The notes beneath the pieces are model-generated. The model ran no database searches and was not told the DNA's origin. It saw only the letters and a program-made list of their open reading frames with translations. The position numbers and the translations under genes were made by a program. 12,895 bases of DNA, taken from UHGV virus genome UHGV-0182645. One strand, 5' to 3'. This document shows positions 2,715-12,857 of this stretch, one piece after another. This DNA comes from a virus. Position 1 is the stretch's first letter. Each line of letters starts with the position of its first letter.

Positions 2715-2943
2715 TTTTCAACCTTTCACCACAAATCAAGACTAACAACCCAATAATAATAACTAACCACTCTGTTTTTTTGATAAGCACCAAATCGTTT
2801 ACAAAAAAAATAGCAAATGACTATTGACACTATTCTGGAAATCACAAACTGCACATAATCCATCGCGCTAACGGCTCCCGTTGAAGGTTCTTTTGACGAT
2901 TAACTTTCAGCCGAAGCGCGGTAGGGAGTCATAACGCCAAAGC

Positions 2944-2968
2944 AGGCCGCCATGTGCGGCCTTTTTTT
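2944..2968 (+). terminator. strong rho-independent terminator (stem AGGCCGC / GCGGCCT, loop CATGT, then T7)
   Basis: Perfect GC-rich hairpin followed by TTTTTTT on the plus strand. No plus-strand protein gene lies upstream of it; see findings. Confidence 0.6.
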
Positions 2969-2995
2969 GTATCCGTCATCCGTGGAGGAAGGACA

Positions 2996-3649
2996 ATGGA
3001 AAAGATCGCAATATTCAGCCTGACCACCAGCAAGCCTCAAATGCTCACTGCAATACTGAAAGACGGTGCTCTCATTATTAACGAAGTAAAACCCCTTCCC
3101 GCGTCAGCATTGGAGCAAAAGCAAAAAATTCCTCCAGCTATAGCAGCCCTGCGGAAAAGCAAATTTAAGGTACTGGTAGACGAAATTACGCCAACGATCT
3201 CCGCTGGCACCGGAGCAAGTCAGGTGACTCTCAAGACCCGTCATGCCGATGGTAGAGCAGCAATCATCGTCGGGATGGAAAGATACAGAGAGTTAAAACT
3301 CCAGAAACTATTATCCCTGCCGCAAAATAACAAAGGTGCTTTCGAAATCCCCGACTCTATCGTTGATACCGAATACAATGGTAACGGAGAAGAAGTCTAC
3401 CGGGTGAACTGGCAGGACATCAGGCCGGAACATATTCTTATGATCCTGTGTTGCTACGCGACCGTATACCACAACGTTGCCAGTGCGGATTACGTAGAGC
3501 AGATGACCGGCGCAGTCGAGAAAGAGCAAAAAACAGGCATACTCGCTTCGTTCCTGTCCATTATTGGGCATGAAAAAGTTGAAGCAGGCACCTCCCAGCC
3601 AAAGTCACTGGCTGGGAAAGAAGTTGATGAAGATACCGTGATACTTTGA
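2996..3649 (+). CDS. hypothetical protein, 217 aa
   Basis: GGAGGA at 2984-2989 lies 6 nt before ATG 2996. The track ORF begins at 2954, but that ATG sits in the loop of the terminator hairpin, so I prefer 2996. No family recognised. Confidence 0.65.
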   Translation: MEKIAIFSLTTSKPQMLTAILKDGALIINEVKPLPASALEQKQKIPPAIAALRKSKFKVLVDEITPTISAGTGASQVTLKTRHADGRAAIIVGMERYRELKLQKLLSLPQNNKGAFEIPDSIVDTEYNGNGEEVYRVNWQDIRPEHILMILCCYATVYHNVASADYVEQMTGAVEKEQKTGILASFLSIIGHEKVEAGTSQPKSLAGKEVDEDTVIL

Positions 3650-3977
3650 TCACATTAGTAGCTTTGTTAACTCCCTCAATACCAGGTAGAAGAGTAACAA
3701 AAATATTGACGCCAGTATTTGCGTGGTCAATGAAGCGTTCATAAACAGATCAATTAGCATTAATAATTCGAATATAACATCCATGTCATTCACTCCGTTT
3801 AATTTTTAATCTAATGCCAGCAAATGAAGCTGGCCCCCGCACAAAGATTAATGAAAGTCACTTGTCACCAGTGAGGGGATTTATGAACCACATCCCCCTG
3901 AACTGGTGGCCTGTCTGTTTCTCACATTTCACACCCTGCATACAGTTTCCCCCAGGTTATGACTGAGAGGCTTTGTT

Positions 3978-4307
3978 ATGGGCTATAGCAGACTCGACGA
4001 CAGGTACATTGAAGACGATATTTTTCGTGCGCTGTTTCACCAGGAAATGATTAAGCGGGTATCGGAGTATCACTCTGATAATTTCCAGTACACGATAAAG
4101 ATTGATGAAGTATATCGTTCAGACCTTGCAGCCTACAGGGCGTATGGCAATGCAGATTTGCGCTGGGTATTCCGGGTGCTGGTGGGCCATGAGTCAGAAA
4201 TGGAAGAAATGCCCGCCGGGACCACGTTAACTCTTCCTGATGTGGCATGGCTGAGGAACAAGATCCGTGATTACGCGAGCGCGGAACCGGAGATAGAAAA
4301 TGCCTGA
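3978..4307 (+). CDS. small protein with C-terminal LysM-like / phage tail protein X-like segment (tentative), 109 aa
   Basis: GAGAGG at 3965-3970 lies 7 nt before ATG 3978. The C-terminal stretch YRAYGNADLRWVFRVLVGHESEMEEMPAGTTLTLPDVAWL resembles the P2 gpX pattern (..YYG....VL.....P.GT.V.LPDV) from memory. Its stop overlaps the next start. Confidence 0.55.
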   Translation: MGYSRLDDRYIEDDIFRALFHQEMIKRVSEYHSDNFQYTIKIDEVYRSDLAAYRAYGNADLRWVFRVLVGHESEMEEMPAGTTLTLPDVAWLRNKIRDYASAEPEIENA

Positions 4308-5493
4308 TTTCCTGAAAAACCAGGACGGGCGCTATATCACTGACGGCCTGTCCTCTAAGGACTTCACGCGTTTATTCGACCTTATCAGGAAAGAACAAAC
4401 CCGTAAGCGCCGACAAGCTCACCGGACGCTGACGCCAGGTAGACTGAGGAACAAATCCGCCGAAGATATTCTCAAGTTAGGGAAGAAAAAAGGCGGCACG
4501 TTCTTCACGCGAGACGACCTGAAAGGTTTCGAAAAGCTACGGAGTAAAACACGCGAAAAATATGACAGCAAGACGGCTGGCATCACATACGCCCAGCTGG
4601 TGGCATCCAGCCAGGCAATCGATATTAAGCGTGCAAATAACGCCGTGGATGACGGATCTGGTATCAAAAGAGCTACACCCGTATCTCTTCGCCACAACGT
4701 GATTAATATCCGCGTAGAAGCATCGGATATATCCGTCCACCAGCACCATATCGTCCGGATACGCTTTGAAGAATGGGATCAGATGGTCGATGACATCGCA
4801 GAAGACGATAAATCAGCTCTGAAAATCACTAAATCACTGTGCGCTGGGCGGGTGTCTTTCGATTGTGACTGTGGTCGTCATCAATACTGGTATCGTTACA
4901 TCGCTACTGCGGGTAACTTTGCCCTGGCCCCGCCAAAAGAATACGCCTATCCAAAAGTTCGTAACCCTAAGCTACAAGGCGTCGCCTGTAAACACGTGAT
5001 CCACTCAATGACGCGGTTACAGTCCGCTAGTTGGCAAATGAGTATTGCTCGTGCGTTACAAAAGGCCGCAACGCAAATTGCATTTGGTGACGATCGCCGC
5101 CGTACAACCAAACACTTCTCAAAAGAAGACGAGAGGGAGTTTAATCGCAATCGCAACAGTAAAACAAACGTTGACGCTGCCAAGCGCGAATGGAGGCTCT
5201 ATCAGAAGCGCCAGGCAGCTTTAAGTACAAAACTGGCAAAGGACAACGGCAAGATCGACAAGCTACGTGACCAATTGACCAGGGCCAGAAAGTTGTCAGA
5301 CGCACAGAAAAAACGGGCGGCTGCAAAAGAAGCGGCCTTGCAACGTGAGAAACAGAAAAACAAGGAGCTTCAGCAACGCCTTGCCGATCAGTTCGCACTG
5401 AAGAAGCAAGCGTTCATTGATGCGCTTGTCATGGCTGGAACGCCACAAGAACAGGCTGAGAAGATGTTTATAGAGTACGTGAAAAAAGCATAA
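4300..5493 (+). CDS. 397-aa protein with a CxC...CxH (SWIM-like) putative zinc-binding motif and a highly charged C-terminal coiled-coil-like tail; function unknown
   Basis: ATG 4300 overlaps the upstream stop (ATGCCTGA). Motif FDCDCGRHQYW...GVACKHVIH. The last ~100 aa are K/R/E/Q/A-rich with heptad-like periodicity. Confidence 0.7.
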   Translation: MPDFLKNQDGRYITDGLSSKDFTRLFDLIRKEQTRKRRQAHRTLTPGRLRNKSAEDILKLGKKKGGTFFTRDDLKGFEKLRSKTREKYDSKTAGITYAQLVASSQAIDIKRANNAVDDGSGIKRATPVSLRHNVINIRVEASDISVHQHHIVRIRFEEWDQMVDDIAEDDKSALKITKSLCAGRVSFDCDCGRHQYWYRYIATAGNFALAPPKEYAYPKVRNPKLQGVACKHVIHSMTRLQSASWQMSIARALQKAATQIAFGDDRRRTTKHFSKEDEREFNRNRNSKTNVDAAKREWRLYQKRQAALSTKLAKDNGKIDKLRDQLTRARKLSDAQKKRAAAKEAALQREKQKNKELQQRLADQFALKKQAFIDALVMAGTPQEQAEKMFIEYVKKA

Positions 5494-5526
5494 ACCACAC
5501 ATAGCCTAGTAGTTTATGCTGGGCTT

Positions 5527-6255
5527 TCATTTTTTTGAAAGATCAATTCCAGTATTATCAAACAAACTGGAAATATCAGACACCAATTTATTAAAATGCT
5601 TGTCATCATTATAGAATGATGTGCTTTTTATAGCGACTATAAAATCACATAAATCTTGCGGAGATTCAATGCTAACCCCCTTATTTTTATATAGCTCAAT
5701 AATACTGCCAACATCAGTATGCAATAGTTTTATCGCGCCACAAATTTCTCGCTGTTTCGCAACTAGGTCATTAAGTTTATTTTCATTTTCATCTAAGATT
5801 TGTTTTGAATATTTAGCGTCATTGGTTGCTTGATTTAACTTTGTTTTCTTTCTTTGCAATTCTATTCTTTTATCATAATCAGCAACTTCATCTAAATATC
5901 TTATTTCAGTGTATAATTTACTTGTTAGCTTAGATATCTTCAGTGTGAGAATAGGAGCTAACACAGATGCAAATACTCCATAAACAAATGGGATTACAAC
6001 GTGATAAACCCACGGGGATACAATCCAATTATCAAAGAACGGGACATTGCCACCAACAAAAACAATAGATAATGTATATAGGATGTCGTCCTTTGACTTT
6101 AATATAATTAAAATATCCTTCCAGTTAAAAATTAGAAAAGAAATGACAACATATGCAAAAACCTTGTTAAATATTTTATCTTTTATTATTTCAGAAAATG
6201 ATTTTAGTTCTGTTTCATTTATAGACGGATTATCTGTAACTTTTTCTGACATCAT
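5527..6255 (-). CDS. AT-rich membrane protein, 242 aa: two predicted TM segments, a coiled-coil segment and a C-terminal domain; candidate exclusion or abortive-infection effector
   Basis: AGGAT lies 6 nt before ATG 6255. Hydrophobic segments VFAYVVISFLIFNWKDILIIL and VVIPFVYGVFASVLAPILTL, then a charged heptad-like stretch (RIELQRKKTKLNQATNDAKYSKQILDENENKLNDLVAKQ). Hand-counted G+C in sampled 60-nt stretches is about 23-32%, against about 50% in flanking genes. Confidence 0.65.
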   Translation of the reverse strand: MMSEKVTDNPSINETELKSFSEIIKDKIFNKVFAYVVISFLIFNWKDILIILKSKDDILYTLSIVFVGGNVPFFDNWIVSPWVYHVVIPFVYGVFASVLAPILTLKISKLTSKLYTEIRYLDEVADYDKRIELQRKKTKLNQATNDAKYSKQILDENENKLNDLVAKQREICGAIKLLHTDVGSIIELYKNKGVSIESPQDLCDFIVAIKSTSFYNDDKHFNKLVSDISSLFDNTGIDLSKK

Positions 6256-6276
6256 AGCTTATCCTGATTACTTTTA

Positions 6277-6477
6277 TTATGGATAGTTAAAAGATTCAAC
6301 AGGTGATGGTGGCTGAATTGGGTAATGTTTCTTCTCGTACTCCTCAATGAGAAGACTCATAACCTCAAAGAAATCACCTTCCGGAGTATTCATTTCCGGT
6401 TCGTTATCGAACATCGGTTCGACCGCACGCAGTGCGGCCTCATAATCTTGTTCTGTACGGATAGGTTTAATGTTCAT
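6277..6477 (-). CDS. orphan 66-aa ORF resembling only the N-terminal (non-HTH) part of a longer HigA-type antitoxin; possible gene remnant or small partner of the adjacent membrane protein
   Basis: Sequence MNIKPIRTEQDYEAALRAVEPMFDNEPEMNTPEGDFFEVMSLLIEEYEKKHYPIQPP fits the N-terminal consensus I recall for that antitoxin family (..EYE.AL..I..L.D....PEGD..E.L..LIE.YE..HYPI). The ORF stops where the HTH would start. No clear SD; it starts 12 nt after a terminator hairpin. Confidence 0.4.
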   Translation of the reverse strand: MNIKPIRTEQDYEAALRAVEPMFDNEPEMNTPEGDFFEVMSLLIEEYEKKHYPIQPPSPVESFNYP

Positions 6478-6489
6478 TAATTACAAAGG

Positions 6490-6516
6490 AAAGCCCACTT
6501 GCTAAGTGGGCTTTTT
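6490..6516. terminator. bidirectional-capable intrinsic terminator (10-bp stem AAAGCCCACT / AGTGGGCTTT, loop TGCTA)
   Basis: Perfect 10-bp stem. Followed on the plus strand by TTGTATGTGTTTT and on the minus strand by CCUUUGU. Sits 18 nt past the higA stop. Confidence 0.5.
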
Positions 6517-6533
6517 GTATGTGTTTTACTATA

Positions 6534-6872
6534 TCAGGCTGCTTTTTTATTCAGGTTCCGCTGAGAAATAAATTTTTCAGCAGTATTGATACGACTTAAC
6601 TCTTCCTGAACGCGCATATCATTTTCGACTTCCCACAGATCTACTGCGGTCTGAAGATTAATCCAAAAATCTACAGAAGTATCGAATGCTTTTGCCAGGC
6701 GATATGCCATATCCATCGTTAGCTTACGATTATTATTAACAAGAGCACTTACGGTGTTACGATGAACATGAAGTATTTCTGCTAACTCGTTGATCTTCAG
6801 CTCTAACGGCTCCAGGTATTCGTACAGAAGGATATCACCTACGGTCGTCGGTTTTCTGGTTGCCTGTTTCAT
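6534..6872 (-). CDS. higA: HigA-type antitoxin, XRE-family HTH, 112 aa
   Basis: AAGGG lies about 7 nt before ATG 6872. The protein shows the HigA pattern (PGDIL..EYLEPL...INELAEIL.V....VS.L.N....LT.DMA.RL...F..S..FW.NLQ) and lies immediately downstream of the HigB-like toxin gene. Confidence 0.85.
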   Translation of the reverse strand: MKQATRKPTTVGDILLYEYLEPLELKINELAEILHVHRNTVSALVNNNRKLTMDMAYRLAKAFDTSVDFWINLQTAVDLWEVENDMRVQEELSRINTAEKFISQRNLNKKAA

Positions 6873-6942
6873 TTTTTGCCCTTACTAGCGTGCGTATTAA
6901 GTGGACTCTGGTCAGAACCCGGACCGTAACCGGGAATCTGTT

Positions 6943-7245
6943 TTAGTATTTGTGAGGGTCGAGATACAAGTCCTCGGCCTTTCCGTTAACCCACTTAAAA
7001 ATTAACCTATATTGCTTATTCACCCTTACTGATGAATAGCCATTTAGCTTCCCTGACAGTTCCTCATACCGATTACCTGGTGGTGATCTTAAATCCTTAC
7101 AGGTAGTTGCGGCATTGATAATGTCCAACTTCCGTGACAATGTCATATGAATATCAGGAGGTATCTTTCTATGTGGTGTTGAAAATTCAAAAAAATCATC
7201 AAGCCACGCATCCCTGAAATCCTTTATGTTAATTTTTTTGGTCAT
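6943..7245 (-). CDS. higB: HigB-type toxin (RelE/ParE superfamily, killer-protein family), 100 aa
   Basis: C-terminal signature YEELSGKLNGYSSVRVNKQYRLIFKWVNGKAEDLYLDPHKY matches the HigB killer-protein motif (W/YR..F.F.NGDA..L.Y.DYH) from memory. Toxin-first order with the HTH antitoxin downstream. Confidence 0.85.
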   Translation of the reverse strand: MTKKINIKDFRDAWLDDFFEFSTPHRKIPPDIHMTLSRKLDIINAATTCKDLRSPPGNRYEELSGKLNGYSSVRVNKQYRLIFKWVNGKAEDLYLDPHKY

Positions 7246-7284
7246 TAGTCATTTGATCCTCCGTGATGATTACCGAATGCCATA

Positions 7285-7318
7285 ACTATAGCGCACTGTT
7301 GCACTGTGCGCAAGTGCA
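7285..7318 (-). promoter_or_regulatory. putative higBA promoter with overlapping operator-like repeats (-10 TATAGT; GCACTGT x2 plus inverted GTGCA)
   Basis: On the minus strand, TATAGT (plus coords 7285-7290) sits about 40 nt upstream of the higB ATG. Immediately upstream is GCACTGT-T-GCACTGT-GCGCAA-GTGCA (7293-7318), a typical arrangement for autoregulated TA operators. The -35 is weak (TTGCGC). Confidence 0.35.
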
Positions 7319-7407
7319 TTTTATGGATTCCCCCTCCTTCATCCAAAATCACAATCTCCCGAAAATCTTCCTTTCGATACCTGACAGATCGACCTTTGAG
7401 GATGCTT

Positions 7408-8199
7408 ATGGGCCGTTTTGACGAATGGTTTGCTGACGATGCAAACCTGGCAAGTAAGGAGTCAGAACATGACAGCACGCAGAGAGAAACGCCAGCGCCG
7501 ATTGAAGCGAATGCAGGAGGTGCGCCGGAACATGGCAATACCGGTTCGGATTCATTCAGCATTCTGGAAGAGCAACCCGCCGCCAAAGCTGATAGCCATG
7601 ATAATTTTGCTGATAGCAACGCTGGCCTTACTCCGGATGCTGCCGAATCAGATATAGCCATACTTCCACCTTCCCTGGCTGGCAGAGAACCAACTCCACA
7701 GCTAAAAGCACGCTATAACGGGCATAAAGCCTTTAATGACCAAATCCGCGCAGACTGGATGCTGATTATTGAATCCAGCCCAGACGCGTTTCAGGCTCTC
7801 TTATATCGACCAGATGTTGGCACATATGGGGTAGTCAGCGACGAAACAGGAGAAGAGTCATTCACTGAACTGGATAACAACCAACGCGAACTGACTTACC
7901 AGGAACCTGAAATCGTTTATGTGCTGGATAACCCTGACGGGCGTGACTCTTTCCATGCGATTGACGCAGACGGTGAGCAGGATGGCTTAACCGATGATGT
8001 TCTGATTCTGCGTATTGCAGCAAATAACGTCCCCGTCGGCTCAATTCTTGAATGGAATGAAGAGATGGTAAACGGCGTAGCCCGCCGCTGGTGGTACGTG
8101 CACCGTATTTTTAGCTACGGCACACAGCATGTTGGTTCGCTTTACTACTGCATACCTGCCAGGAATTTTGATACGACTCAAAACGGAGTGATCGAATGA
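7408..8199 (+). CDS. hypothetical protein, 263 aa, with an acidic low-complexity N-terminal half; first gene of a four-gene coupled operon
   Basis: GAGG at 7398-7401 lies 6 nt before ATG 7408. The track ORF starts at GTG 7306, but that would run through the divergent higBA promoter. Stop overlaps the next start (ATGA). Confidence 0.65.
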   Translation: MGRFDEWFADDANLASKESEHDSTQRETPAPIEANAGGAPEHGNTGSDSFSILEEQPAAKADSHDNFADSNAGLTPDAAESDIAILPPSLAGREPTPQLKARYNGHKAFNDQIRADWMLIIESSPDAFQALLYRPDVGTYGVVSDETGEESFTELDNNQRELTYQEPEIVYVLDNPDGRDSFHAIDADGEQDGLTDDVLILRIAANNVPVGSILEWNEEMVNGVARRWWYVHRIFSYGTQHVGSLYYCIPARNFDTTQNGVIE

Positions 8200-8963
8200 C
8201 TTCAAATAAAACCCTCCTGGCGCGAACAGGTGAATGGCAAACCTCACGCACAGGAAAATTCCAGACCACGGGCTTTGAAAACGTGGATAACGCGTTTGCG
8301 ACGCTAATCAGCAACATTTTTTCTGATATCTTACTTGTGGCCCCCGCGCCGGAAGAAAAACGCTTTGCGTCATTCCTGAATCGTCCACCAGCAGAGCGTG
8401 TCTATGTGGCCCGTTTCGACAATGCGATCGAGTTTCTTAAAGCAGTACGTCGCGCAAATGCCGGGCAAGGGAGAAAACCTGAAAACCAGAACATTAACCG
8501 GGATGCTCTCCCCCTGGTCAATATCTCACGCACTATGGATATCAATTATATCAACGATGATCAGCAGATTGACCGCAAAAAAGTAGCCAGTTTTTGCGAA
8601 CCGGATACCGGAATGCCTTTAGCAGAACTGGAATACACCCAGGCCATTCTGACGTATGACGTTACGTTAATGGCAACTGATAAAGCGACCATGAGTCTGA
8701 TGTGTAATTCGCTGGGCGCACGGCTTCGCCTGATGACAGGTACACAATTTGAAGCAACCACTCACCTTGTTCGTGTCCCGGTCCCGCTGATTTGCTCGAT
8801 ACAGGATGCCAAAGAAGTCGGCTTTACGGATGTTTCAGCACCAATTGGAGAAGAGCGTATTTATGCCACACAAGCGCCGATAAGTGTGATTGCAGACGTG
8901 ATCACAGCATGGGAGTTGGACGCAAAACGTATTATTACCGAAACCTCGATATCTATGGGGTGA
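8196..8963 (+). CDS. hypothetical protein, 255 aa
   Basis: ATG 8196 overlaps the upstream stop. Continuous coding-like composition. No family recognised. Confidence 0.65.
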   Translation: MTSNKTLLARTGEWQTSRTGKFQTTGFENVDNAFATLISNIFSDILLVAPAPEEKRFASFLNRPPAERVYVARFDNAIEFLKAVRRANAGQGRKPENQNINRDALPLVNISRTMDINYINDDQQIDRKKVASFCEPDTGMPLAELEYTQAILTYDVTLMATDKATMSLMCNSLGARLRLMTGTQFEATTHLVRVPVPLICSIQDAKEVGFTDVSAPIGEERIYATQAPISVIADVITAWELDAKRIITETSISMG

Positions 8964-8966
8964 TAA

Positions 8967-9947
8967 GTGGCCCAGGAGTTACAACAATATTTTCTACAGT
9001 CAGTGCTCATTAACGATAACAAAGTGCCACGAGACTGGATTTTTACCGCAGTATATGTAGAAAAAACCAGCCTCAAAGCCCCTTTGCTAAAACTGGAAAT
9101 TCATGACGCTACCGGCACCGTAATTGATGACTGGAAAGCAAAATACGGTGCATCGCTGGTGGCTGAAATGGGCGATCCAAACGGTAATGCAGGCACTTTT
9201 AAAACAGATTTCTTTGTTACGTCTGCAATGCTGGCTGGTGATGTTGTTACCGTTATTGCTGTCAGTGAAGACGTGCGCAGGTTTAAGATCCCCTCCCCGC
9301 GCACAAATTTACATACCAACAAAACACCAGACGCTATATTCAAGGCATATTCCGGCAAGCTTAAAATTACCAGCAGCGTGCTAAAACGCGCAGTTACATA
9401 TCATCTGAATGCCGGTGACAAACCGTCAAAAATGCTCTCGCAGATAGCGCGAGACAAAGGTGCATTATGTTGGGTATGCCGTGGGGAATTTAACTTTTAC
9501 ACCCTGGCTGATCTGATGAAGCAAACGCCATCATTTACCTACGAGGGGAATAACCCTAAAGCAGAATACACTTTGTCCAAAATGCGCCTACTCCAACAGG
9601 AACATGCGACAACAGCAAAGAATCAATATCGTTTTGTTGGGTATTCCATGACCGATGGCTACGTCGAATATGGCGATAGCTCACTCCCAGTGCGTTATAT
9701 ATCCGACTCTGATATGGAAACTCTTCGCAATATGCAGCTGTCTCTCGTCCCCAAAATGGATATAGAAGTCGCAGGCAATCCGGATATAAAACCGGGAATG
9801 GTAATAGAGATTATCGTATACCGCTATGACCAGGAAAACCGCATTGATGAATCAATGCCCCGCAAGCTGATAGTAAAAAATGTTGCGCACTTTGAAGACC
9901 GCGTAGGCTACACAACACGAATGATATTAGGAGTGCCGAACAAATGA
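8967..9947 (+). CDS. hypothetical protein, 326 aa (GTG start); possibly a structural or baseplate-associated protein by position
   Basis: GTG 8967 with GGGGTGA upstream, 3 nt after the previous stop. Its stop overlaps the next start (ATGA). A functional guess rests only on adjacency to the spike-like gene. Confidence 0.6.
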   Translation: MAQELQQYFLQSVLINDNKVPRDWIFTAVYVEKTSLKAPLLKLEIHDATGTVIDDWKAKYGASLVAEMGDPNGNAGTFKTDFFVTSAMLAGDVVTVIAVSEDVRRFKIPSPRTNLHTNKTPDAIFKAYSGKLKITSSVLKRAVTYHLNAGDKPSKMLSQIARDKGALCWVCRGEFNFYTLADLMKQTPSFTYEGNNPKAEYTLSKMRLLQQEHATTAKNQYRFVGYSMTDGYVEYGDSSLPVRYISDSDMETLRNMQLSLVPKMDIEVAGNPDIKPGMVIEIIVYRYDQENRIDESMPRKLIVKNVAHFEDRVGYTTRMILGVPNK

Positions 9948-10656: not shown

Positions 10657-11562
10657 ATGAGATCAGTCGCTTTCAAAAACATCTTCATCTATCGTCTTTC
10701 ACGTGAAGTTAACTGGAGTGCCGCAGAAGTATCCGATGCTCTTAGCAAATTCGTGTTTACTCCTTGCGGTTCTCAGGACACAGCTAAAGTCGGTTGGACA
10801 CCTGTTCTTGGTGACAACCTCACCCATGAATACCAGGGTTTTCTGCTAATACAGCATAAGCGAGAAGAAAAAATTCTCCCCTCGCAGGTGCTCAAGGAAG
10901 AGTTGCAGAAAAAAGTCCTGAAACTCGAAGAAGAGCAAGCCCGCAAGCTGAAGAAAACGGAAAGAGACAGTCTTAAAGATGAAGTCCTGCATTCACTTTT
11001 GCCTCGCGCGTTCACGAGAAAATCACTCGCCAAAATCCTGATCGACCGCAGCAACCATCTGGTATTCGTTGAGGCAAGCAGCGCCAAAAAGGCAGAGGAC
11101 CAGCTGGCTTTATTGCGAAAGTCGCTCGGCAGCCTGCCTGTCATTCCATTCACACCACGCGAACCGCTGGAAATTACAATGACCGAGTGGTTTAAAAGCG
11201 GCTTCCCTGCCGGATTTACAGCAGGTGAAGACGCCACATTAAAGGGTCTGCTCGATAATGGTGGTGCCGTTCGCTGCAACAAAGTTGATCTACAGTCCGA
11301 CGAGATTATGTCTCACATTGAGGCGGGGAAAGTAGCTACGACCGTTGCAATTAACTGGATGGACCGTGCGTCGTTCAGAGTCAACGATGATATGAGTATC
11401 AAAGCCCTGACATTCTGTGATGATCTCTATGACCAGAACGACGATATCGACCGGGAGGATGTAGCACAACGATTTGATGCTGATTTCGTGCTCTTTACGG
11501 GCGAATTATCTGCACTGTTTAACGCGCTGGTGGAGGCCATTGGCGGTGAAGCAGAACGATAA
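10657..11562 (+). CDS. rdgC: recombination-associated protein RdgC homolog, 301 aa
   Basis: Near-colinear by-eye match to E. coli RdgC over the full length, for example [94 protein letters not shown] and GGEA. GGTGA lies 4 nt before the ATG. Confidence 0.9.
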
Positions 11563-11578
11563 TAACCGACCGCTTGTT

Positions 11579-12226
11579 GTGAGTCTTTGTGATTTTACGG
11601 GGGCAATGGTTGCCCCCTGGCTGGAATACGGTGTCGATGCCGCTATCGTCGATCCACAGCACTTATCGACCAGTGACGAGCGGATGCAATCAGGTGCCGT
11701 TCTGACGCGTATTAGTGCGATCATCGATAGCGATGAAGTATACGCTTTTCTCCGTAAGAATTTGCAGCGCATCGTGTTTCTGGCCGGGTTCCCACCGTGT
11801 ACTGACCTGGCTGTTTCCGGCGCGCGCTGGTTTTCGGACAAGGCTAATAAAGATCCGGTTTTCCAGTTCAAAGCAATGCAGGTTGTCTGGCAGTGTTATG
11901 ACATTGCAAAGATGATCGGTTGTCCGTACATGATTGAAAATCCGGTCAGCAAAATATCGACATTCTGGCGTAAGCCAGATCACATCTTTCACCCTTACTT
12001 CTTCACTGCATATTGTCAGGAAGATAACTACACCAAAAAAACATGCCTCTGGAGCGGCCAGGGCTTTGTCATGCCTGATGCCCTAATGGACGAATCATTA
12101 GGCAAGCCAGATAACAGAATCCATGCCGCGCCACCAGGGCCTGACAGGGCTAATTTCCGAAGTGCTACTCCACATGGATTCGCAAAGGCAGTTTTCGAAG
12201 CGAATAAGGGGGTGCTCTATGAGTAA
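11579..12226 (+). CDS. compact C5-cytosine-methyltransferase-like protein (motif I-like, PPC in place of PCQ, ENP in place of ENV, C-terminal motif-X-like), about 215 aa; start uncertain
   Basis: VVSLCDFTGAMVAPWLEYGVDAAIVD resembles motif I of C5-MTases, FLAGFPPCTDLAVSG resembles motif IV (GFPCQ.FS.SG), and YMIENPVS resembles motif VI. There is no room for a normal target-recognition domain. I chose GTG 11579 to retain motif I without overlapping rdgC; ATG 11606 and ATG 11474 are alternatives. Confidence 0.5.
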   Translation: MSLCDFTGAMVAPWLEYGVDAAIVDPQHLSTSDERMQSGAVLTRISAIIDSDEVYAFLRKNLQRIVFLAGFPPCTDLAVSGARWFSDKANKDPVFQFKAMQVVWQCYDIAKMIGCPYMIENPVSKISTFWRKPDHIFHPYFFTAYCQEDNYTKKTCLWSGQGFVMPDALMDESLGKPDNRIHAAPPGPDRANFRSATPHGFAKAVFEANKGVLYE

Positions 12227-12857
12227 ATCTATAGCAAGCATAGCCATAGAAAAACAGGATACGATGGCTGAAATTAGCTATATGCGCACCATTCGGACTC
12301 CGGATGAATATGAGCGTCCGATATTCAAATGGGTAGGTGGTAAATTCTCAGAATTGCCTACAGTGCTTGAGCATCTACCACACGGTAAGCGGTTAATAGA
12401 ACCATTCGTTGGTGGCGGTTCCGTATTTACGAATGCAGGATTTCGCCACAACCTGCTTAATGATATTAACGGTGACCTGATTAACTTCTATCAGACATTG
12501 CAGCGAGAAGGACATTCGCTCGTCACGCTGTCATATAGTTTTTTCAAAAATTACAACAACGCTGACGCTTACCTCGAAGTGCGTGAGGCATTTAACAGAG
12601 GAAAATATGACCAGCTACATCATGCTGCCGCATTTTTGTACCTTAATCGTCACTGTTTTAATGGCGTAACGCGGTACAACCAAAATGGCGAGTTCAACGT
12701 GGGGTATGGCAAATACAAAGCGCCCTACTTCCCACATGCAGAGATGGAGGCATTTTTGGCTGATGACGTACTCAAAAACACTTCCTTTGTATCAGGAGAC
12801 TTTGCTAGCGTCATCGAGGCAGCTGGTGCATCCGACGCCGATTTTGTGTACCGATAA
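12219..12857 (+). pseudogene. Dam-family (D12 class) N6-adenine methyltransferase-like ORF, apparently truncated just before the catalytic DPPY motif
   Basis: Colinear by-eye match to E. coli Dam from FKWVGGK through EPFVGGGSVF, LNDINGDLINFY, FLYLNRHCFNGVTRYNQNGEFNVGYGKYKAPYFPHAEMEAF to ...ASDADFVYR, then TAA at 12855-12857. In Dam the equivalent position reads ...DASVVYCDPPY. AAGGGGG lies 6 nt before ATG 12219; ATG 12264 is an alternative start. None of the three frames after the stop encodes DPPY within the remaining 38 nt. Confidence 0.65.

Follow-up and report, generated by a model that had tools for sequence, protein, structure and literature searches.

The stretch of DNA analyzed here, called the window below, covers 12,895 nt of the virus genome UHGV-0182645 and is part of a D6-like phage-plasmid. 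A megablast search with positions 5400-7350 returned Escherichia phage D6, at a mean identity of 88%, together with 112 plasmids in PLSDB from E. coli, Salmonella, and Shigella, almost all of which are non-mobilizable and approximately 90 kb in size. The ORF under study lies on the minus strand in a variable cargo slot between tail genes that resemble gene 25 and gene 7 of phage P1. The following features are found at or near this locus:

4300-5493, plus strand: P1 gene 25-like tail gene, on one side of the slot; P1 gene 7-like tail genes lie on the other side
5489-7345, no strand assigned: variable cargo slot
5527-6255, minus strand: gene of a membrane/coiled-coil protein of 242 aa (phrog_8191), 57% identical to the D6 allele
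6256-6276, minus strand: spacer of 21 nt from the remnant stop to the start of the membrane gene, carrying the AGGA Shine-Dalgarno sequence of the latter (6262-6265)
6277-6477, minus strand: higA' remnant ORF of 66 aa, with an ATG start and a TAA stop (6277-6279)
6485-7345, minus strand: replacement cassette (HigB-like RelE toxin, HigA antidote, and terminator), in the place where siblings have the cognate PF09907 higB and its promoter
6490-6514, minus strand: terminator-like hairpin, part of the incoming higBA cassette of the PF05015 type, with a T-rich tail and its end 12 nt before the remnant ATG
6534-6872, minus strand: HigA antidote (TIGR02607, E = 8e-30)
6943-7245, minus strand: HigB-like RelE toxin (PF05015, E = 4e-35)

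The layout agrees with the initial annotation on every point that it described. An AT-rich membrane protein gene was said to follow directly downstream of the ORF; its GC content is 0.28-0.35, as compared to about 0.48 in the flanks, and its product has a long helix preceded by hydrophobic segments at approximately residues 32-52 and 78-108. The AlphaFold2 model of this protein is poor, with a pLDDT of 65 and a pTM of 0.29. The 21 nt that had been counted between the stop of the ORF and this gene are exact. The ORF had also been placed after a terminator hairpin and without an obvious Shine-Dalgarno sequence, and none is indeed seen between the hairpin and the remnant ATG (CCTTTGTAATTA-ATG). 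The PF05015/TIGR02607 toxin-antitoxin pair on the other side of the hairpin is intact, and its toxin shows no variation among the 12 loci sampled.

Various other elements were observed elsewhere in the window. A second AT-rich patch (2551-2850, GC 0.36) adjoins an ORF of 291 aa on the minus strand (1839-2714), the product of which has a hydrophobic N-terminus and no Pfam or PADLOC match. Two Rfam families scored above the gathering threshold on the plus strand, the isrK Hfq-binding RNA (402-481, 60 bits) and the C4 antisense RNA (505-592, 75 bits), both upstream of the gene for a Rha-domain protein (861-1802). The region 402-592 looks like a P1-type immI-like immunity region. The ORF at 10657-11562 on the plus strand corresponds in position to an RdgC annotation in a close relative plasmid, and the counterpart of the ORF at 12123-12857 on the plus strand is annotated in NZ_CP032875.1 as a DNA adenine methylase, marked partial by RefSeq.

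The likeness of the 66-aa product to the N-terminal half of an antitoxin is far beyond chance. Profile likeness to antitoxin N-terminal domains was found with the PADLOC model PD-Lambda-2_B, of which positions 1-65 of 402 were matched (E = 2.5e-16), and with the PHROGs family phrog_1373, annotated as "transcriptional regulator," of which positions 1-63 of 166 were matched (E = 8.4e-19). Pfam and NCBIfam scans of the ORF gave no match, and its HigA family was recognized via PADLOC, PHROGs, and direct comparison only. Another PHROGs family, phrog_10398, has 66 positions and matches the ORF from end to end; it is the same truncated ORF.

Direct comparison was made with orf72 of phage D6 (ASR76362.1, "HigA family addiction module anti-toxin"), a HigA-type protein of 119 aa which, like WP_001022419.1 and WP_021551809.1 of D6-like plasmids, is the product of the same gene at the same locus. 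Residues 1-54 of the ORF are identical to those of D6 orf72, codons 1-54 being without any difference; codons 55, 60, and 61 differ, and the two sequences are unrelated from codon 62. The likeness thus stops at residue 61, after which five unrelated residues, SFNYP, lead to the stop codon. The Pfam HTH_3 domain of D6 orf72 comprises residues 63-115 and begins two residues past this point. Both domains of the full-length protein are covered by its alignment with the HigA of E. coli K-12 and Shigella (residues 6-112 on residues 24-132 of PDB 5IFG_B, E = 8e-8; also 5YCL_A). As compared to D6 orf72, the window copy is without residues 62-119, including HTH_3, without the original stop codon, and without the terminator, and it has gained five unrelated codons. 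The reading by eye in the initial annotation, in which the ORF resembled only the N-terminal half of a longer HigA-type antitoxin and stopped where the helix-turn-helix (HTH) would begin, is borne out by these partial profile matches and by the alignment with the full-length antitoxin, which covers the N-terminal domain only. Two parts of the ORF can be distinguished:

6295-6477, minus strand: codons 1-61, derived from a 119-aa HigA antitoxin of the type that partners PF09907 toxins, according to sequence comparison
6277-6294, minus strand: codons 62-66 and the stop, unrelated to HigA and apparently derived from what used to be the membrane-gene 5' leader

Of the hallmarks of a HigA-type system, the N-terminal helical domain is present, while the C-terminal Xre-type HTH (PF01381), which serves dimerization and operator binding, and an adjacent upstream cognate HigB of the PF09907 family in the same operon are absent. 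A tblastn search across the whole window detected no HTH-coding remnant. A split or frameshifted higA with its HTH encoded nearby was ruled out, as the window holds no HTH-coding DNA. Neither the window nor the complete window-type plasmid NZ_CP032875.1 (p1_000837 of E. coli WCHEC000837) specifies a PF09907 HigB; the toxins and antitoxins of this plasmid are two RelE/ParE-HigA pairs and Phd/Doc. In RefSeq, the pseudogene label given by the PGAP pipeline to the window-type ORF reads [quoted passage not shown]

The retained part is well preserved. All conserved positions of the N-terminal domain that are nearly invariant in the family are kept in the ORF (T8, D11, Y12, A14-L16, P32-D35, L43, and E48). 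AlphaFold2 predicted a helical hairpin with a pLDDT of 87, and this part is very acidic, with a net charge of -9. Foldseek found no significant counterpart of the model in the PDB (best E = 1.8); a hairpin of two helices is too simple to be informative. Short relatives of the same antitoxin family that consist of the N-terminal domain only were also noticed at three other loci (L031, L033, and L034; proteins P0009, P0025, and P0028), the sites being beside trbL on a conjugative element, in Photorhabdus, and on a chromosome between ybaB and recR. Remnants of this antitoxin gene family seem to be frequent.

Two known systems share this module. HigA (YgjM) of E. coli K-12, the antitoxin of the PF09907 HigB (YgjN) and the protein in PDB entries 5IFG_B and 5YCL_A, belongs to the same two-domain family, in which the HTH of the K-12 protein is C-terminal (PMC7984235). 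The window keeps only the N-terminal domain, has no adjacent PF09907 toxin, and its sequence identity with K-12 HigA is low. The PD-lambda-2 defense system consists of a HigB-like component A, a component B of about 400 aa in which a HigA-like domain is fused to a peptidase, and a P4-antitoxin-like component C (Vassallo et al. 2022, PMC9519451). Component B, the peptidase of which is of the ImmA/IrrE type, shares only its N-terminal module with the 66-aa ORF, which has neither the HTH nor the peptidase domain. No match to the PD-Lambda-2 A or C models was obtained among the five window proteins scanned with PADLOC, the PF05015 HigB (6943-7245) included. As only positions 1-65 of the 402 of component B are matched, the assignment of the ORF to a PD-lambda-2 system was ruled out.

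The cargo slot was found in different states in the relatives of the window:

pTB423 (L006, NZ_CP034790.1): HigB (PF09907, 100 aa, WP_021551810.1) followed by the 119-aa HigA (WP_021551809.1), 3 nt apart, without a membrane gene
L003, L004, and L005: PF09907 HigB and 119-aa HigA, a terminator hairpin, approximately 60 nt, and a membrane-protein homologue of 243-275 aa
Phage D6 and a few plasmids: PF05015 HigB-like toxin, TIGR02607 HigA, and terminator replacing the PF09907 higB; then the full-length 119-aa HigA and the membrane gene
The window: the D6 layout, with HigA cut to 66 aa and a different allele of the membrane gene (57% amino acid identity to that of D6)

Related elements thus carry an intact HTH at the same locus, in the full-length 119-aa HigA of D6 and of L003-L006. 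Within the slot, only 6296-6484 is common to the window and the ancestral-type plasmids, with a nucleotide identity of 91-95% to the sibling alleles; because nothing else of the slot is shared with them, the remnant ORF is a stretch of old sequence flanked on both sides by replaced segments. Its left breakpoint lies at 6295/6296. To the right of this point, 6296-9850 is 99.3% identical to phage D6. To its left, D6 has 309 nt where the window has the 109 nt of 6187-6295, and these 109 nt match none of them; over 5450-6186, the identity to D6 is only about 55-82%. The three mismatches with D6 in codons 55, 60, and 61 are clustered just before the junction. On the evidence of these alignments, the fragment has suffered losses on both of its sides, that of the cognate higB and that of the HTH.

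The upstream signals differ in a similar way. In the ancestral layout, the Shine-Dalgarno sequence of higA, GGAG, is located inside the 3' end of higB (…CTGGAGTAAATC-ATG), while in D6 and in the window, the tail of the terminator has taken the place of GGAG (…GGGCTTTCCTTTGTAATTA-ATG); the hairpin occupies the former site of the ancestral Shine-Dalgarno sequence. No sigma-70-like site was detected in a promoter scan of the minus strand between 6256 and 6540, and an Rfam search over 5400-7400 yielded no RNA family. Leaderless expression, which the initial annotation had offered as an option, was rejected as unsupported, as no -10-like element was seen by eye at the distance needed for a leaderless start at the ATG. 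Transcription of the remnant, if any, would occur by read-through from the higBA cassette. At the other end, the last approximately 15 nt of the ORF and the spacer of 21 nt look, by eye, like the leader that natively precedes the membrane gene in the D6 and sibling alleles (CTAT..CATAA..AATCA..GG..TA..G..ATG).

According to these comparisons, the ancestral cargo of the slot was higB (PF09907), higA (119 aa), a terminator, and the membrane protein gene. In a first step, which the comparison with relatives shows, an unrelated PF05015 HigB/TIGR02607 HigA cassette with its terminator replaced higB, the promoter, and the Shine-Dalgarno sequence of higA, up to approximately 7 nt before the higA ATG. 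The outcome was an orphan full-length higA, as seen in phage D6. In a second step, likewise shown by comparison, a recombination or deletion took away codon 62 onward, the higA stop, and the terminator, about 200 bp in total, so that the codons of the N-terminal domain now run into the leader of a divergent membrane-gene allele. Recombination with a divergent allele plus a deletion of approximately 200 bp is the simplest reading; we infer the order in which the membrane allele arrived and the deletion took place. Orphan and degraded antitoxin genes arise by turnover of toxin-antitoxin loci, and anti-addiction modules are a concept of the toxin-antitoxin literature. The fragment resembles such orphans in that it has no toxin, is located at a hot spot for recombination within a mobile element, and has sister lineages with independent inactivations.

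The initial annotation had proposed that the ORF is the scar of a toxin-antitoxin locus of which the AT-rich gene displaced the 3' part. A scar consisting of the N-terminal domain only, with the HTH gone, agrees with the data; the role given to the membrane gene does not, as its homologue is the regular third gene after HigB and HigA in siblings and is present in D6 as well. The AT-rich gene as a foreign cassette that displaced the HTH was ruled out, since homologues follow a full-length HigA in many loci. The order HigB (PF09907), HigA (N-terminal domain plus HTH), membrane protein was observed in the majority of the contexts examined, namely in D6-like phage-plasmids (L003-L005), in Klebsiella IncFIB plasmids (L009 and L010), on a Leclercia chromosome (L014), on an Enterobacter plasmid (L016), and in L017-L019. 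Membrane-protein homologues in these loci include the following:

L003, 1368-2105
L009, 2950-3681
L014, 3001-3618
L016, 3001-3738

As the D6-type and Klebsiella-type clusters are only 26% (HigB), 29% (HigA), and 42% (membrane protein) identical, the gene order is either old or repeatedly assembled. Exceptions exist. L006 contains HigBA without the membrane gene, and in the Klebsiella grimontii locus L012, the membrane gene follows umuDC, with no HigA or HigB called adjacent to it. The absence of HigA from K. grimontii rests on gene calls: tblastn with the 119-aa HigA gave no match in these loci, which is no valid negative, since the known 139-aa HigA of L014 and L016 escaped the same search. 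The phrog_8191 family is small: among 1.84 billion proteins, 105 representative clusters reach E <= 0.001, and 30 reach <= 1e-10; a profile search of genome contigs with an alignment of the membrane protein found nothing.

The second proposal of the initial annotation, a functional small protein that regulates or neutralizes the membrane effector, would require the N-terminal fragment to bind or control the 242-aa protein. This is extremely unlikely. The three-gene order is kept at the deep divergence given above, the gap between ORF and membrane gene is only 21 nt, and the loss of the HTH coincided with the appearance of a new allele of the membrane gene. These points are outweighed by loci in which the two genes go separate ways: the membrane gene is intact where an IS3-family element splits the ORF (L008) and where no HigA or HigB is called beside it (L012), and HigBA occurs without it in L006. 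Moreover, a terminator hairpin and approximately 60 nt separate higA from the membrane gene in the full-length loci, and a fragment without HTH cannot be a DNA-binding regulator. The proposal thus found no support.

A role in cis only, in which the remnant would be kept as a transcribed spacer or leader for read-through from higBA into the membrane gene and its peptide would be irrelevant, is very unlikely as well. It would fit a membrane gene deprived of its upstream region by the deletion, the lack of a promoter-like site on the minus strand from the terminator to the membrane gene, the weak T-tract of the hairpin on this strand (TTTCCTTTGT), and the AGGA Shine-Dalgarno sequence that the membrane gene has kept. 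The IS3 element in L008, however, cuts the read-through path, and the membrane gene is still intact. Promoter prediction is weak evidence either way, and nothing requires these particular 200 nt.

The good preservation of the N-terminal domain bears on a third alternative, in which the 66-aa domain would be translated at a low level and, as a stand-alone mini-antitoxin, would bind the PF09907 HigB of siblings. Such an anti-addiction factor would safeguard cells in which an incompatible sibling that carries HigB is displaced by a window-type plasmid. K-12 HigA (5IFG) presumably binds its toxin with the N-terminal part, by analogy with HigA2 of V. cholerae, although open-access papers yielded no explicit statement of HigB binding by this domain. 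For HigA2 of V. cholerae, a published study describes the N-terminal part as the toxin-binding part (PMC11006873), which counts in favor of this alternative. So do the intact domain with all its nearly invariant positions, the confidently predicted helical hairpin, the cognate HigB carried by siblings of the same replicon type (rep_cluster_1704), and the fact that no other state is as common as the truncated allele. Over the 61 residues in common, the N-terminal domains of the sibling HigA proteins differ from the ORF only by C41S, E55Q, and I60V. Nevertheless, the alternative is unlikely: the ORF has no Shine-Dalgarno sequence, a terminator lies 12 nt upstream of it, and the dimerizing HTH half is lost. 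The N-terminal domain is not generally protected in the same toxin-less lineage, in which a frameshift and a nonsense mutation accompanied by replacements in the domain (D35N) were found, and one plasmid tolerates the IS3 element inside the ORF. The commonness of the truncated allele is explained by hitch-hiking. Overall, it is improbable that the 66-aa hairpin is a translated free toxin-binding module, whether kept against the PF09907 HigB of siblings or as a partner of the membrane protein encoded by the third gene.

Intact higA alleles differ pairwise by 6-18 synonymous and 0-3 non-synonymous changes and are thus under strong purifying selection. In the toxin-less D6-type lineage, the orphan higA has suffered several independent inactivations, including the deletion of the window type. 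L029 and L030 carry a +1 frameshift at codon 53, leading to a product of 54 aa (P0012). In L038, a Q69* nonsense mutation is combined with six lineage-specific replacements (P5T, N25S, M29T, D35N, F37L, and F65S), one of which changes D35, a residue that is nearly invariant in the family. In L008 (pMTY12355_3, NZ_CP134379.1), an otherwise window-type plasmid, an IS3-family element is located at 2729-4054 inside the 66-aa ORF.

The ORF is, with good confidence, a non-functional remnant (pseudogene) of a K-12-type HigA antitoxin gene. It is a partial match to a gene that is intact at the same locus in relatives, its expression signals and its partner are lost, and sister copies are disrupted. 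Several observations stand against this reading. AU-rich starts without a Shine-Dalgarno sequence can be translated, and the part left over is, by confident prediction, a complete helical hairpin that could have kept the ability to bind a HigB. The frame is open, with almost no variation, in all sampled copies of the junction except for the IS3 case, and at least 1000 contigs are on record with the exact 66-aa protein. In PLSDB, 71 plasmids carry the junction, and among 5,426 complete E. coli genomes, 50 contain it, in each case on a plasmid; the window-type membrane allele was found in 71 PLSDB records (>=90% identity), which fits the number of junction records. As only 3 of the 201 nt vary among the window-type copies of the ORF, their open frame is uninformative on selection. 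The fragment is most likely neutral DNA, since it has no cognate toxin, no DNA-binding domain, and no ribosome-binding site, and it would be common only by riding on a very successful phage-plasmid lineage.

The membrane gene beside the remnant shows a different pattern. Among 12 near-identical loci with the same junction, its pN/pS was 0.32, as compared to 0.09-0.13 for its neighbors, and replacements recurred at residues 7, 91, 165, and 166. Such a pattern is indicative of relaxed or diversifying selection on the gene in the loci compared.

In conclusion, the remnant is a clean and well-resolved example of toxin-antitoxin cargo turnover at a hot spot flanked by tail genes in D6-like phage-plasmids. 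It was already known as a partial gene or pseudogene in RefSeq, is ordinary, and matters little as such. Caution is advised with phrog_10398 and with the names "HigA antitoxin" or "transcription regulator" given in PHROGs and UniRef to an ORF without a DNA-binding domain or a cognate toxin. A more interesting by-product is the conserved order of HigB (PF09907), HigA, and a membrane/coiled-coil protein across plasmids, phage-plasmids, and one chromosome; this cluster may be an uncharacterized three-gene addiction or abortive-infection module.
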